IMG/VR virus record: IMGVR_UViG_3300045988_114464
Span: 32,001 to 96,000 of that record
Direction: 5' to 3' (one strand)
Source of the DNA: a virus
Length of the DNA: 64,000 nt
Shown: piece by piece, positions 29,901 to 58,460 of the stretch
How the letters are laid out: every line of letters begins with the position of its first letter
Position numbering within the stretch: the stretch's first letter is position 1
The notes under the pieces: model-generated
Told to the model about the DNA's origin: nothing
Database searches by the model: none
What the model saw: the letters and a program-made list of their open reading frames with translations, nothing else
Position numbers and translations under genes: made by a program

Positions 29901-32900
29901 ATTTAAGTGGTACTATTGACAAGGTTAATAGTGCGCTTAAAGACGCAAGTAAAGGTACTAAAATCGAACTTGATGGTAATAACATTAAGTTTGAGTCGGA
30001 AGATGCAGTCAATGAACTAAAGAGCCAAATCGAAGATGCCTTTGATGGTATGGACTTTGAAGATATTGTCAAAACTGATGCGGGCAAGAGCATACTTGCT
30101 AATCTTTTTGACGGTATGGAAATTGACGCTGACCAAGCGGGCGATGTAGGTAAAGATTTCGCTGACGCAGTAACCGAAGCTATTCAAGACCAATTAAACA
30201 CCACTCAAATCGCACTTAACGGTATTGGTGCTGAAGTCAAGGGCGAGTTAGGTTATCAAGTTGACGAAGGCATGAACGCTGTTCAAGAATCTGGTCAACG
30301 AACTGCTGATTGGTTCTCTAATAGCTTTGCGCCACAAGTACAGCAAGGTGTTCAGAGCGCTATGTCTGGTGCAGAACAATCCGCACAAAATAGCGTAAGT
30401 GTTCTACAAGGCATATTCTCTAACATGAATATTGCTGACCCAATGCAACAAGTTCAGCAAGGTATTCAAAACGTCAACGGCGAAGTTAATAACTTTAGTG
30501 CTGGTAACATGACAAGTCAGCTTGGTGAAGTTGGCACTGCCGCAGGGCAAGCAGGAGATAAATCTGAAGAAGCTAAAACTAAGGCTCAACAACTGAGTCA
30601 AGTTTCTATGTCGAACTTTATCACTGGTATGGTGAATGGCGCAAGTTCGGCTTCTGCGCTATCTTCTATTGCTTCTACTGCTTATAACAATGCTTCTAAG
30701 TTAAATACTACCTTTACTACCGTATTTAAGGCTGATACTTCTCAGTGGAAAGTTCCTTCTCTTCCTACGGGAGTAAAGAAGGCTGTGGGTCAAATTCCAG
30801 CTTATGCCAACGGTAAAATGGATGACCTTTCTGGCACTCAACCAATGCGTTCTCAATCCTCTAAGATTGCGCTCGTTGGTGAGGAAGGCGCAGAGTTCCG
30901 TATTACTGCTGATGGCAGAAAAGAACTTCTTGGTAAGAATGGTGCAGAATTTGTCAAGGTAAATAAGGGTGATACCATTATTCCTGCGAATGTTACTGAT
31001 ATGATTCGCAAGGGACAACTTCAAGGGTATGAAGCGGGCAAATTTGGTGGTAGAACTTCTGTTTCTGGTTCTGGTGTAAGCAATGGCAATCATACTATTC
31101 ATGTTGGCAAAACCGAAAGTCGATATGTTGGTGCGACCAGTAGTAGCACTAAGGCTACTCATGCTAATACTAAGGCGACTAATGCCAATACTTCTGCTAA
31201 GTCTGCTAACGCTTCTGCAAGTTCCAAAGCCGCTGAAGCAACAGACGAACTAACAGACGCACAGAAAAAGCAGAAAGAAGCCTTTGAAGAAGCTAACGAT
31301 GTAACCGAACACCATATTTTCTTGCGTGAAAAACAAGGCGCTTCTTACGCTGAACTCATTAAGATGAGTAAGGCTTATCAGAAGCAACTTAATAAGCAAG
31401 CAAATTGGTGGAGAAGCCAAGGGTTTAACGATGATTCTGAAGAAATCCGCAAAATCCAAAAGGATTGGTGGGGACTTCAAGATGACATAACTTCCTATCA
31501 AGAAAAGGCTTTTGACGAACGCTATCAGAAATCCAAAGATTACATTGATGACCGTAATGACCTTGAAGATTGGGGTGCTGACTCCGAAATTGAAGCATGG
31601 CATCGTGTTGAAAAGTGGATGGATGAATGGTATGCTCGTGGCGAGATTAGCTACAAGTATTACCTTGAAAAGCGTAAAGAAGCCACAAAAAAAGCCGCCG
31701 AAGCTGAAAAGAAGGCTTGGGAAGAAGCTAAAAAGTCTCAGATTAAAGAACTTGAAGATTGGCAAGACGTTTACGAAGATTTGTTTGACCTTGTAGCTGA
31801 CAAGGCTCAAGAAGAAATCGACAAACTGAACGAACAACGCGATACCGTTGAAAAATATTGGGACGATAAAATTGACGCGCTTGAAAAGGCGAACGATGAA
31901 CTTGACGACCAGATTGAAAAGGAAGAAGCACTTGACGCTTTGGCTCGTGCTCGTTCCACTAAAGTCATGGTTTATCAGAATGGTCGATTCCAATATATCA
32001 ACGATATGGACGAAGTTTCTGAAGCTAAGACTAACCTTGAAAAGATTGAGCGCGAACAAGCACTCAAGAAAGAAAAGGAAAATCTTGAAAAGCAGAAAGA
32101 AGCGGCTCTAAAGGCTATTGACGACCAGATTGACGCATGGGAAAAATACAAAGACGAGTGGGGCAAGGTTGTTTCTGATTACGAAAAGAAGCAGAAGGAA
32201 CTTAATGTTCTACAGAAACTTGGTATTGACCTTGAAGCAGATAACTGGAAAGAGCGCCTTGGTAATCTACAAGATTACGTTAATAAGTATGCCGAAATTA
32301 TGGGGCAACTTACCAAACTTAAAAAAGAAGAAGAATTGGGTAAAGACCTGCCTTCCTATGACTCTAACAAGGGTACTGCTGGCGCGGGTGCTGGTGCAAT
32401 TATTGGTACTGGTGCAGGTATTGCCGCTGGTGGTGCTATTGGTGGCGCTGTCGGTGGTGCTATTGGCACGGTCATTGGCGCTGTAACCGGTGGTCTTGGG
32501 CTTAATAAAGGTAGTTCTTCTTCTGGTGGTTCAAGTTCTTCTGGAAAAACTTACCAATCTGTTGGTGGTAAAGCACCTTCTGGCTTAAAAGCTGGTGACA
32601 AGGTAGTTACTAATGGTGGTACTTACACTATCACTGGTGTTAATAAGGACGGTTCTTATACTTCTCAGAAAACTTCTAACACTACAAAGTCCAATTATAA
32701 AGGCACTTATTCAAAGAAGGCTTCTGGCACTAAATATAATGCGGCAGGTATTTCGCTCGTTGGCGAAGAAGGCGCAGAATTGCGCGTACTTGGTCAAGGT
32801 GAAGGTATTGTTCCTCATGATATGACAGCTAACCTGTTTGAATGGGGACAAACCAGACCGAGCGATATTGTATCTGCTATCACAGGCGCACAAACTGAAA

Positions 32901-53434: not shown

Positions 53435-53923
53435 TCACTTCACGCTAATGCTCTTGTTCTCCACCAGCTTAACACCATGTAGCGGAGTACCACTCTGTAC
53501 CATCTTCTTGAGGTCGGTCTTGCTATACTTGTAGGTTTCAATCTTAGTGCATAGGTCTTTGTGGAACTTGAGAAATTCTTCTTCATTGATCTCGGTGCTT
53601 GTAGACTTACGGAAAGAAATCTTGCAACGTGCAGTTTCAAACTTGCTACCTTGCAGGTCATCAGACAGCATAACCTTTAGACGATTGATAAGATTTTCCT
53701 TGACCTTTCTACGCTTTGCAAGGTTGACTTCTTCCTTCTTGATAGCGTCACACTCGGCTTCAACAGACTTAATGTAACAAGCGATGTTTTCAATCTTTTC
53801 GTCATGTGCTACTTGAAGCTGGTCAAGTAGCGACATATCGGTAAGGATTTCGCCAGTTTCTTCGTCAATCTCGATGTTGTTCATAAAGTCAAGAATTTGA
53901 GAGTTAATATCATATAGTGTCAT
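53435..53923 (-). CDS. Siphovirus Gp157-like protein
   Basis: The start MTLYDINSQILDFM follows GGAGGAATCAAA. The acidic N-terminus and coiled-coil layout are typical of the Sipho_Gp157 family. Confidence 0.55.
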   Translation of the reverse strand: MTLYDINSQILDFMNNIEIDEETGEILTDMSLLDQLQVAHDEKIENIACYIKSVEAECDAIKKEEVNLAKRRKVKENLINRLKVMLSDDLQGSKFETARCKISFRKSTSTEINEEEFLKFHKDLCTKIETYKYSKTDLKKMVQSGTPLHGVKLVENKSISVK

Positions 53924-54631
53924 TTTGATTCCTCCATTAAATAGTTGTACCATGTTTCAGCCATTGCTTGCGCGATAGATGGGAAAGTTTTACTACGATT
54001 CTTAGCGCGTTCAGCTTGGTTCTTACCGCCTTGAGCGTCACACCAGTTTACTCTTTGTCCATTGTGGAGATAGTATTTAGCGTCCGGCTTATCAAAATCG
54101 TTACGTCTTTCAAGTAAAGGTAGACCCTTTAACCAAAGACAAGTGCGCTTCATGTCATAGCTTTCGTCATCTTTACTCGTGACAAAGTAATAGGGGTGGA
54201 TAATCTGATTTGGCTTACGATAATGCGTGTTCATATAGCCAACAGGGTTTTCAATAGCAATATGCTTACAGTTGGCATGGACAAAGTTCATAAAGAAATC
54301 ATACGCTTCTTCACGTTGCTTAATGCGTTCAGCAACTTTTTCTGGTGAGTTACATCGTAAGCTATAATGTCTTGTCCCTGCCACAGTAAGGTAAGTACAA
54401 GGTGGATGAGCAATGATTAAATCCCACTGTCCTTCCACCTTATGCACTTTGCCGTCCATTGTGGTAAATTCACAGTTACCGTTAAGTAAACTTAACACAT
54501 CACCTTTAATATGCCATTCAGGGTGTCCACCGCTACACTCTTGAATGTCACAGGAGAAGCAACGCCCCCCCCAACTCACGGAAAGCCTTACAAACAGTTT
54601 GGCTTTCTTCACAAGCAATTAGAATATTCAT
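53920..54631 (-). CDS. C5-cytosine DNA methyltransferase, frameshifted at a G8 tract (phase-OFF as sequenced)
   Basis: The body has IIAHPPCTYLTVAG (motif IV) and IAIENPVG (motif VI). The true N-terminus MNILIACEESQTVCKAFRELGG begins at ATG 54631 after AAGGAGA, but G8 puts it in another frame. G7 would fuse the two parts. Confidence 0.75.
54565..54572. repeat. homopolymer C8 (G8 on the coding strand)
   Basis: Counted directly; located at codons 20-23 of the C5-MTase gene. Confidence 0.95.
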
Positions 54632-56360: not shown

Positions 56361-57133
56361 TTAATCATTATTATATTTTCCTTTCCACCTAAACAGCTTT
56401 TCTGTTTTCTTAGGCTGATTATTCTTGTTATAGTCAAGCGTTCTTCTCAATTCCTTTTCCCAGACAACTTCAAAATCGTCTGGCGCTTCTTGCTCGGAAA
56501 TAAATACAATACATCTCTTAGAAAGTTCACGCATATATTCCCAAAATTCTTCGTGGTTAAAATCACCAGTTGTATAACCAGTAGTTTTAGCATAAGGCGG
56601 GTCACAATATACAACCGCCCCGTTTGGAATATCAACTTCACGATAATCAAGACAAGTAAAATTGGCATTTTGTACACCTTGCAAGTCACGAAGTAAACTG
56701 CGTTCCGCTCGGGCACAATAATTGTCACCTCGTTTATTACTTGCCAACCCACCAAACCATTTACCACCAAACGAACAACCAAAACCGACAAAACCAGTTA
56801 ATGCCTTATTCTCGTCTTTGTGCTCTTTGATGTAATAATATTCTTCTTTAGTGATAATAGAAGGTGGTGTCCAGCCAGACTGTAAACCTTTCCACATTTC
56901 AATCAAATATGGATGCTTATCATTAAGAATTTTGGTTTCTGCTTTTACTTTCGCTTCAACAGCACAAGAGCCACAGAACAGACTTACGAATGTCTGCCCC
57001 CCCCAAGTTCAAGGTGTGGTTGATAACTTGTGCAATCTGAGTTGAGATACGAGATTTTCCGCCCATGTATTGCATTGTTAATTACCTCCGAAATTTGTTT
57101 AGAAATACGAGATTTACCGCCTAAGTAACGCAT
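56361..57133 (-). CDS. Dam-like (D12 class) N6-adenine DNA methyltransferase, frameshifted at a G8 tract, with a duplicated 5' end
   Basis: The body has FVSLFCGSCAVE (motif I) and VVYCDPPY (motif IV). Two N-termini, MRYLGGKSRISKQI (ATG 57133) and MQYMGGKSRISTQI (ATG 57075), lie in the two other frames. G7/G10 fuse ATG2 to the body and G6/G9 fuse ATG1. Confidence 0.75.
56997..57004. repeat. homopolymer C8 (G8 on the coding strand)
   Basis: Counted directly; located at codons 24-27 from ATG2 of the Dam-like gene. Confidence 0.95.
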
Positions 57134-57164
57134 ATAATCATCCTTTCATGTTGATGATTATATC

Positions 57165-57266
57165 TTATCTCATTTTAGTTGCTTTGTCAATACGTTCTTT
57201 GGCGATTTCAAAATAATTTTCATCAAGTTCCATACCGATGAAATTGCGGTTTGTATTGACAATTAT
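57165..57266 (-). pseudogene. 3' remnant of an N4/N6 (PF01555-like) DNA methyltransferase gene
   Basis: ..NTNRNFIGMELDENYFEIAKERIDKATKMR* is the typical C-terminal motif of this MTase family. The frame opens only 33 codons before the stop. Confidence 0.55.
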
Positions 57267-57892
57267 TCAAAATTAAACTTATATACTCTTTTAACCCAAC
57301 TTAAAAAATCTTCTTTTGACATTGTACTTTTGGCTGTGTTACAATATTTGCAACAAGGAACTGTATTTGTGACAGTATAGCCTATGTTACTATCAATTCT
57401 GTCAATTCCATTGCATTTTACAACAGTATCAGAAAATAAACCGTCTGCTTTTGTTTCGTTTCTTCTATCATATAAAACTTTAGAATACTCTAACCCACAA
57501 TAATAACATGGCGATTTTGATTTTTTGATAAAATCTTCTATTGGCATAATTGTCCCATTAAATTTTTTGTGCCTTCTCATTAAATGGGAATATTGAACTT
57601 TGAAAATGGCGTATTCTCTATCTTCAAATAACCCAAATTGATTTCCTCTTTTTTTAAGAAACTCGGTTAGTAAGCATCCGCAACTTTTTGATTTTCCACT
57701 TGATAAATTATCGCCAACTACAATTTTTTGCTGACCGCAATCACATTGGCACAACCATGTATGTTTTCCCCTGTGGTCTTTACCCATGTGTTTTATTACT
57801 ACCAATCTTCCATATCTTTCACCCGTTCTGTCTCTAAATGCGCTCAATAATAAACCTGCTTTCTTTTTTATTGAGTTCAAGGCAATCGCCAT
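57263..57892 (-). CDS. HNH-type homing endonuclease (start uncertain)
   Basis: GERYGRLVVIKH..WLCQCDCG..SCGC at the N-terminus and CNGIDRIDSNIGYT..NTVPCCKYCNTAK at the C-terminus match a common phage HNH family. Confidence 0.65.
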   Translation of the reverse strand: MAIALNSIKKKAGLLLSAFRDRTGERYGRLVVIKHMGKDHRGKHTWLCQCDCGQQKIVVGDNLSSGKSKSCGCLLTEFLKKRGNQFGLFEDREYAIFKVQYSHLMRRHKKFNGTIMPIEDFIKKSKSPCYYCGLEYSKVLYDRRNETKADGLFSDTVVKCNGIDRIDSNIGYTVTNTVPCCKYCNTAKSTMSKEDFLSWVKRVYKFNFE

Positions 57893-57908
57893 TCTTAATA
57901 TCAATCAT
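57834..57908 (-). pseudogene. 5' remnant of the same methyltransferase gene (24 codons)
   Basis: MIDIKNGDCLELNKKE is the typical N-terminus of PF01555-like MTases and has a good RBS (TAGGAG). The frame stops after 24 codons and overlaps the HNH ORF. Confidence 0.5.
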
Positions 57909-57939
57909 TATTATTCTCCTATTTAACTTAAAGTTAATT

Positions 57940-58460
57940 TCACTTCTTCTGAATTTCTTCAAAGACAATCTGCTTTGGTAACATCTTGTGGCACACATAC
58001 GCACTACTGAAAGGTGGGTTAAGGCTTGGCTTTTGGTCTGCGTAGTCCTTGAAGTAAGCAACTCTGCGGTTAAGGTACATGATTTCAAACTCATTGTTCT
58101 TAAATATATCGAACCTTCGCTGAGATTCAAACAAGCCTACAACACCCACCAGCATTGCGAACGGCTTGCCAATTTCAAACAGTCGTTCCAACACTTCTGT
58201 CTTGACGCTATAAGGTGGATTGCTGATAATCATGTCACACTGTGGTATTGGCATTGTGAAAAAGTCCTGACCATTATCAATGTGCGTACAGATTACCTTG
58301 TTGCCCTGTGCTTTAAGCATTTTAACGAAGTGTGATTCTTCTGTATCAAAAGGACACCATACCGTCAGTTGGGGGGGGCATAAGCCAAGATAGGCTTAAC
58401 GGCATAGGGCGGTGTGTAGAAGTTATCGTTGCCAGAGCCAGCTACTTTATCCATTTTCAT
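57940..58460 (-). CDS. small N6-adenine DNA methyltransferase (NPPY), frameshifted at a C8 tract
   Basis: The N-terminus MKMDKVAGSGNDNFYTPPYAVKPILAYAPP (ATG 58460) stops at 58365. The body ..LTVWCPFDTEESHFVKMLKAQGNKV...MIISNPPYS.. is in another frame. C9 or C6 would fuse them. Confidence 0.7.
58371..58378. repeat. homopolymer G8 (C8 on the coding strand)
   Basis: Counted directly; located at codons 28-30 of the NPPY MTase gene. Confidence 0.95.

Follow-up and report, generated by a model that had tools for sequence, protein, structure and literature searches.

How many of the three reading frames behind a slippable repeat can be made productive? Phase variation by repeat slippage is textbook material for surface genes and for the restriction–modification (R-M) methylases of a few pathogens, where as a rule a single frame of the three is ON; to our knowledge, such variation based on simple sequence repeats (SSRs) has hardly been studied in gut Clostridia. 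The question is raised here by a Dam-like methylase gene on the minus strand of a 64,000-nt stretch of viral DNA (positions 32,001 to 96,000 of IMG/VR record IMGVR_UViG_3300045988_114464), hereafter the window, in which two tandem copies of the gene's 5′ end, each with its own start codon, precede a run of eight G residues. The answer that we regard as very probable is a three-state phase-variation switch on a phage Dam-like methylase, with the states short enzyme, long enzyme and off.

The window belongs to a tailed phage of an anaerobe, with a portal protein, a Dda/exoV-like helicase and an NrdD-like anaerobic ribonucleotide reductase. Neither the locus nor 24 kb of the window found a megablast match in the GenBank phage collection, and the nearest cultured-phage protein to the methylase is 47% identical. 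Because cultured phages offered no near match, all comparative work was drawn from loci in metagenomes and metagenome-assembled genomes (MAGs). Coordinates are window positions throughout, and the Dam-like gene and all its 5′ features, including the open reading frames (ORFs) present as sequenced, lie on the minus strand:

57141..57147, minus strand: Shine–Dalgarno (SD)-like GAAAGGA, 7 nt 5′ of ATG1, proposed from sequence and duplex energy
57077..57133, minus strand: copy 1 of the N-terminal module, beginning at ATG1 (57133), MRYLGGKSRISKQISEVIN; predicted N-terminus of the long isoform
57085..57089, minus strand: GGAGG within copy 1 (codons Ser-Glu-Val), 9 nt before ATG2; putative SD of the short isoform
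57005..57075, minus strand: copy 2, beginning at ATG2 (57075), MQYMGGKSRISTQIAQVINHTLNL; dual-coded, as N-terminus of the short isoform and linker of the long one
56997..57004, minus strand: poly-G tract, G8, between the N-terminal helix and motif I, 129 nt after ATG1
56361..56996, minus strand: body of a D12-class N6-adenine methyltransferase (QTFVSLFCGSC...YCDPPY), out of frame with both ATGs at G8
56984..57133, minus strand: ATG1 ORF as sequenced, 49 aa, ending just past the tract; OFF-state product
56956..57075, minus strand: ATG2 ORF as sequenced, 39 aa; OFF-state product

ATG1 opens MRYLGGKSRISKQISEVIN and ATG2 opens MQYMGGKSRISTQIAQVIN, and the 58 nt between them are of the form 3n+1. 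An earlier note on this DNA had described two tandem starts 58 nt apart, in different frames and both off the body frame at G8, and the coordinates and ORFs agree with that description. The two copies match at 41 of 57 nucleotides and 14 of 19 amino acids and share the Dam N-terminal 'Y-GGKSRI' module; the probability of at least 41 chance matches in 57 at the local base composition is ~1e-12. As in SSR contingency loci, the simple repeat (G8) lies within the coding region near its 5′ end, and it is one of three G/C runs of at least 8 in the window, where 0.19 would be expected.

When tract lengths were simulated, G7 and G10 joined ATG2 to the body (products of 237 and 238 aa), G6 and G9 joined ATG1 to it (256 and 257 aa), and G5, G8 and G11 joined it to neither start. 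These outcomes reproduce the assignment proposed in the earlier note, according to which G7/G10 serve ATG2, G6/G9 serve ATG1, and the G8 class alone among G6 to G10 is fully OFF. Because 58 equals 3n+1, copy 2 is read one base out of register from ATG1; in the long product, copy 1 provides the N-terminal motif, while copy 2, read in the −1 frame (NAIHGRKISYLNSDCTSYQPHLEL), becomes a linker. The '19-aa extension' that had been attributed to G6/G9 was right in size, the long product exceeding the short one by 19–20 aa, but not in kind, as copy 2 is out of frame and there is no in-frame extension.

In the proposed switch, slipped-strand changes in the G tract would shift the enzyme body among the three reading frames. 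At G7 or G10, ribosomes initiating at ATG2, with its strong internal GGAGG, would make the canonical short enzyme. At G6 or G9, initiation at ATG1 would make the long enzyme, in which copy 1 would act as the essential N-terminal 'Y-GGKSRI' helix and the out-of-register copy 2 as a ~24-aa linker before motif I, modelled by AlphaFold at low confidence. At G8, the length sequenced, no full-length enzyme would be produced. Because the tract lies downstream of the essential motif, a second productive frame would be available only if that motif were present twice, offset by 3n+1, as the duplication supplies it. Two of the three tract states would be ON, with either single-G slip from OFF leading to ON; the two neighbouring one-ATG SSR methylases are ON in one frame of three each. 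Both isoforms would be active methylases.

The G6 to G10 series that the earlier note had suggested building as reporter fusions exists in nature. All five lengths were found in the window's own lineage, at loci with 0–2 mismatches to the window over the 129 nt from ATG1 to the tract, and they are assigned the following states by simulation:

G6 (L145): long isoform
G7 (L148, L149): short isoform
G8 (the window, L001, L002): off
G9 (L147): long isoform
G10 (L146): short isoform

Repeat length differs among these near-identical sequences and, in the simulated outcomes, toggles the frame. The G6 locus, L145, additionally carries ATG-TAA at codon 2 of copy 2, a change that is lethal to the copy 2 frame and reads as Ala→Val in the ATG1 frame. 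With the reconstructed long isoform as query, a search retrieved a natural protein, P0001, which is 97% identical to it and belongs to a cluster of 121 sequences. Long forms (P0001, ...ELGGQ...; P0125 and P0134, ...ELGGGQ...) and short forms (P0128, ...NLGGQ...; P0133, ...NLGGGQ...) both occur in this cluster, together with many gene calls of 174–180 aa (up to 195 aa within P0121–P0132) that begin at the internal Met of ...IEMWKGLQ and are without motif I. Calls of this kind are as expected for OFF alleles that have been systematically mis-annotated as truncated proteins.

By family profile, motifs and predicted fold, the window gene is a Dam-like D12-class N6-adenine DNA methyltransferase. 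The ATG2+G7 product matches the D12 profile, Pfam PF02086, with an E-value of 2.2e-20 and a score of 73.9 bits against a curated cut-off of 22, and it aligns from residue 1 with annotated phage Dam proteins at no more than 47% identity. Its N-terminal GGK module is followed by motif I (FVSLFCGSC), which binds S-adenosylmethionine, and by the catalytic YCDPPY. Motif I reads F-C-G-S-C here rather than the textbook FxGxG and was aligned with RFVDLFCGG of T4 Dam, the closest solved sequence to the window's methylase. For the natural long isoform P0001, AlphaFold gives a model with a mean predicted local distance difference test score (pLDDT) of 80 and a predicted template modelling score (pTM) of 0.81. 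In this model, copy 1 forms a helix (residues 8–23, with a mean pLDDT of 91 for residues 11–20), and the frameshifted copy 2 segment (residues 26–42) falls below a pLDDT of 50. Foldseek places the model in the Dam fold, with a probability of 1.0 and a template modelling (TM) score of ~0.55 against EcoDam, T4 Dam and DpnM. A passage on the role of the EcoDam N-terminus (Lys9) was sought in the text of PMC4417163, and none matched. Around the gene lie further methylase genes, an HNH gene and small ORFs, and the annotated 53.9–58.5 kb, where the scan covered three ORFs by Pfam and two by PHROGs, showed neither mod/res nor hsd genes. On this annotation, the Dam-like gene is a Type II-like orphan and not a Type I/III phasevarion.

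The signals for initiation differ in strength between the two starts. The SD of ATG1 in the window forms an anti-SD duplex of −5.4 kcal/mol, against a background of −2.4 ± 2.7, and that of ATG2 is stronger, at −10.8 kcal/mol. The GGAGG inside copy 1, which the earlier note had taken as the ribosome-binding site of ATG2, is indeed present 9 nt upstream of it, and it lies in a CGGAGGT that is invariant in 10 of 10 unique loci sharing the 58-nt spacing (mean −10.6 kcal/mol), consistent with that putative role. The short form is probably the high-expression state and the long form the lower one, if duplex energies are a guide. Among loci with a 55-nt spacing, some that have no recognisable SD before ATG2 nevertheless sit in the state in which ATG2 is in frame.

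Is the arrangement a peculiarity of one lineage? Relatives were collected by scans seeded only with the body motifs FVSLFCG and (FG)CSFGGK(W), taken from a body-only alignment, which yielded 80 loci from viral contigs and 33 from a set of one genome per bacterial species; all counts below are based on these scans. An earlier scan of viral contigs, which recovered 31 loci, ~20 of them with two N-terminal copies followed by a repeat tract, was biased in that one search pattern was MQYMGGKS itself, and it was not used for counting. The methylase clade yielded 88 distinct 5′ regions, 65 of which are duplicated, distributed as follows:

Duplicated, single tract after copy 2: 45 of 88
Duplicated, second tract between the copies: 18 of 88
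Duplicated, no tract by G/GA search: 2 of 88, one of which (L071) carries (TA)7
Single copy, no tract: 14 of 88
Single copy with tract(s): 9 of 88

Where no tract intervenes, the distance from ATG1 to ATG2 is 55 nt (34 loci), 58 nt (10 loci) or 67 nt (3 loci), and always 3n+1. The tract itself may be poly-G, (GA)n or (TA)n, at a constant site between the N-terminal helix and motif I. Genome hits place the hosts among gut Clostridia (Ruminococcus, Oscillospiraceae, Acutalibacter, Flintibacter and many MAGs), and the same build is present in the cultured hosts Ruminococcus sp. YE282, Acutalibacter caecimuris and Flintibacter muris. The comparison with related phages for which the earlier note had called found the upstream copy neither absent nor degenerate: the duplication is kept in relatives whose protein identity is as low as ~55%, and purifying selection acts on each copy. 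It is conserved across phages and prophages of gut Clostridia and is not a scar.

The loci with a second poly-G tract, located between copy 1 and ATG2, form a subclass of their own (L014–L019, L103, L104, L125–L129, L132, L135 and L137). In these, the first G run plus AG itself makes the SD of ATG2, and four loci are in an IN/IN state, for which a protein with two tandem N-terminal modules is predicted.

Length variation extends beyond the window's lineage. In a two-tract cluster with near-identical flanks, the paired tract lengths were (8,8), (8,7), (11,7), (7,8), (9,9), (10,8), (8,10) and (7,9); another lineage shows G9, G10 and G11, and a third has (GA) tracts of 15 and 17 nt. A few tracts are interrupted and appear locked, with ATG1 in frame in L020 (GGGGAGGGGG) and ATG2 in frame in L075 and L078 (GGAGGGG). 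Across the 45 duplicated loci with one tract, ATG1 is in frame in 6, ATG2 in 17 and neither in 22.

Selection on the two copies was assessed from ratios of nonsynonymous to synonymous variation (pN/pS). Pooled over nine lineages, copy 1 has a ratio of 0.25 and copy 2 one of 0.31, synonymous sites being close to saturated (pS ~0.8), and the DNA of copy 1 gives ratios of 1.6 and 3.5 when read in its other two frames. On these values, both copies are coding and under purifying selection. The Lys-Ser-Arg codons of copy 1 vary by lineage (AAA-TCT-CGT, AAG-AGC-CGC, AAA-TCA-AGA). Because the two copies within a locus are synonymously saturated relative to each other (pS 0.5–1.2), the duplication is old and not homogenised.

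A separate signal concerns the frame in which ATG1 reads through copy 2. This frame is free of stops in 10 of 10 lineages, where shuffling of synonymous codons gives an expectation of 0.24–0.61 for each. Copy 1, which encodes almost the same peptide as copy 2, serves as an internal control: stops in the −1 frame occur in 36 of 65 copy 1 sequences and 1 of 65 copy 2 sequences (Fisher p = 8e-13), and, after clustering at 80% identity, in 9 of 19 clusters for copy 1 and 0 of 19 for copy 2 (p = 0.001). The contrast is also seen at the codon pair Gly6-Lys7, where GGT-AAR, which creates TAA in the −1 frame, is used by 18 of 49 copy 1 sequences and 1 of 49 copy 2 sequences. Since copy 2 is spared −1-frame stops, selection keeps ATG1 able to read on as far as the tract; and since selection holds this read-through open, the long fusion protein would matter.

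Several observations weigh against a three-state switch. The long state is the rarest (6 of 45) and about half of the loci are OFF (22 of 45), so the long form may be an intermediate that is tolerated, and not an end state that is selected; that either isoform is active is something we infer. The SD of ATG1 is weak in the window's lineage (−5.4 kcal/mol), and the 55-nt-class loci L011, L012 and L020–L025 are without a recognisable SD for ATG2 (+1.8 to −2.9 kcal/mol). In one locus, L087, the read-through frame is broken by a stop. Phylogenetic relatedness among the loci overstates the p-values, although the cluster-level test still holds. Finally, a metagenome consensus can carry homopolymer errors and is silent on switching rates within a population.

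The alternative that survives best, itself improbable, takes copy 1 as a regulatory upstream ORF (uORF) that modulates initiation of the short isoform, the long fusion being a non-functional by-product. It draws on the position of the ATG2 SD inside ORF1, so that ribosomes translating ORF1 must unwind or occlude it, and on the low frequency of the long state (6 of 45). A leader peptide, however, would have no reason to keep Y-GGKSRI under purifying selection, or to stay open exactly to the tract in nearly all loci. L145, where copy 2 has a nonsense codon and ATG1 is in frame, and L020, locked with ATG1 in, are likewise at odds with it, and the long form is modelled as a normal Dam fold with copy 1 as its N-terminal helix. 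A role purely as a uORF was rejected on the strength of motif selection, the open frame, these two alleles and the long-form model.

Less probable again is a change of frame at the level of RNA or the ribosome, by transcriptional slippage or programmed frameshifting on the G run. Homopolymer runs can make RNA polymerase slip, and the OFF state, common as it is (22 of 45), would cost less were some expression restored by slippage. Against this, the (GA)n and (TA)n tracts found at the same position are no known frameshift or slippage sites, and length variation is observed directly in the DNA. Such a change of frame could also coexist with DNA-level switching rather than replace it.

We give still less credence to the proposal that a fixed, always-on gene only looks out of frame through a homopolymer error made in sequencing or assembly. 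G8 runs are error-prone and all three 8-mer tracts of the window read OFF, but no single systematic miscall restores all three genes, three independent contigs of the lineage read G8 while others read G6, G7, G9 and G10, relatives carry (GA)n or (TA)n of varying length at the same site, and a dual-start build would be purposeless in a fixed gene. The artefact was rejected for want of a common miscall and in view of the several tract lengths and the non-G tracts. Least probable of all is a scar left neutrally by recombination or duplication, not translated and in decay, which the divergence of the copies (41 of 57 nt) and the single-copy, tract-free relatives (L003–L008 and others) might suggest but which the conservation and selection tests reject, copy 1 being kept in 65 of 88 5′ regions under purifying selection as strong as that on copy 2 (pN/pS 0.25), with codon switches at Ser (TCT/AGC/TCA) and Arg (CGT/AGA), an invariant 3n+1 offset, a read-through frame protected from stops and natural in-frame long proteins.

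What would a three-state switch on a methylase serve? Going by general knowledge of phage orphan methylases, we propose that the DNA of phage or prophage would be methylated stochastically, as a bet-hedge between hosts whose restriction is methylation-sensitive and hosts whose restriction is methylation-dependent; in lysogens, the switch could be an epigenetic one as well. A bolder extension, which we hold to be doubtful, is that the two ON isoforms are not equivalent, the frameshifted loop of 19–20 residues that separates the N-terminal helix from motif I altering activity, processivity or sequence preference, and that the neighbouring genes add combinatorial methylomes per burst. Were it true, one tract would set a three-phenotype epigenetic switch (unmethylated, pattern A, pattern B), and its combination with the 2–3 adjoining SSR-switched methylases would amount to a general, previously unrecognised counter-defence bet-hedge of gut Clostridia phages.

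Among known systems, the closest parallel is the one drawn by the earlier note, to the multi-ATG build of lic1A-type genes, and it stands: upstream of the CAAT repeat of Haemophilus influenzae licA, two of the three frames contain initiation codons (PMC2212159). In both genes the repeat lies in the 5′ end of the ORF and the number of repeats determines whether a start is in frame, and which one; in the window gene, too, starts in two of three frames precede the repeat, each giving a full-length product in simulation, and both forms are found in nature. The licA repeats, however, lie at the extreme 5′ end, so that its alternative starts need encode nothing functional, whereas in the window gene, a DNA methylase gene of a phage of gut Clostridia, the tract follows the essential motif, and the second frame would be gained through a motif duplicated at 3n+1, with copy 2 dual-coded.

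SSR-driven ON/OFF N6-adenine methylases are also known from Type III mod genes, Type I phasevarions and the Type IIG gene cj0031 (PMC5909438, PMC7383803, PMC4889913). The switches of mod, hsd and cj0031 are two-state, have one start codon and belong to chromosomal R-M systems of pathogens, in contrast to the window gene, an orphan D12-class enzyme gene of phages and prophages with two productive frames and two predicted isoforms. Hypermutable polyG tracts are also mentioned for Campylobacter phages in PMC8713573, which cites Sorensen et al. (2021, Cell Rep 35:109214). These resemble the present case as contingency-type tracts in a phage genome with phenotypic diversity among progeny, and differ in that the host phylum is not that of the window's phage. 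The Campylobacter phage tracts reportedly affect receptor-binding genes, with no dual-start build said to have been reported. A phase-variable prophage enzyme, the NeuO O-acetyltransferase of the Escherichia coli K1 prophage CUS-3, is described in PMC3046976. Unlike the product of the window gene, it is not a DNA methylase. NeuO has translated heptanucleotide repeats and one start codon, and is not known to carry a duplicated motif. T4 Dam, EcoDam and DpnM share the family and fold of the window's enzyme, as well as an N-terminal Y-x-G-(G/N)-K before motif I (T4 Dam 'YTGNK...RFVDLFCGG'), whereas their genes have one N-terminus and no repeat tract.

The earlier note was aware of no such arrangement in a phage methylase, and a full-text literature search of limited coverage returned none, nor any description of a duplicated functional module with a dual-coded second copy or of SSR-switched Dam-like genes in gut Clostridia phages. 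The build would represent an evolved way round the one-in-three rule, in which a motif is duplicated at 3n+1 and the second copy is readable in two frames, and it would offer a natural, widespread example in which selection can be measured on each of the two frames of a short dual-coded segment. Cultured lysogens carry the same build, so that a direct test is open to the idea that phages randomise the methylation of their own DNA. For annotation, the implication is that switch genes of this kind are routinely miscalled as truncated proteins.

The surroundings of the Dam-like gene hold further loci of a contingency-like nature, and the window's only three G/C runs of at least 8 all lie in methylase 5′ ends within 4 kb:

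53920–54631, minus strand: second DNA methyltransferase gene (PPC motif, phrog_757), with G8 at 54565–54572, 59 nt after its single ATG; OFF as sequenced, predicted ON at G7/G10
57940–58460, minus strand: third methyltransferase gene (NPPY, weak EcoRI-methylase Pfam match), with C8 at 58371–58378 (minus strand); OFF here, predicted ON at C6/C9
57263–57904, minus strand: HNH endonuclease ORF (phrog_374/1035), lying between remnants of a fourth, N6_N4-type methylase gene (57165–57940)

Dual starts were sought in both neighbouring SSR methylases, and each has one productive frame. The third gene carries C9 (ON) in the relatives L001 and L002 and C8 in L145. What is left of the fourth methylase comprises its first ~12 codons (MIDIKNGDCLEL), from 57906, and its last ~26 codons (NRNFIGMELDENYFEIAKERIDKATKMR*), ending at 57165; L001 and L002 have it intact, with a C8/C9 tract of its own, and L145 is without the HNH gene. 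In the relatives L006 and L011–L025, up to six further G/C runs of 8–13 occur within 3 kb of the Dam-like gene, a distribution that points to a clustering of contingency loci in these phages of gut Clostridia.

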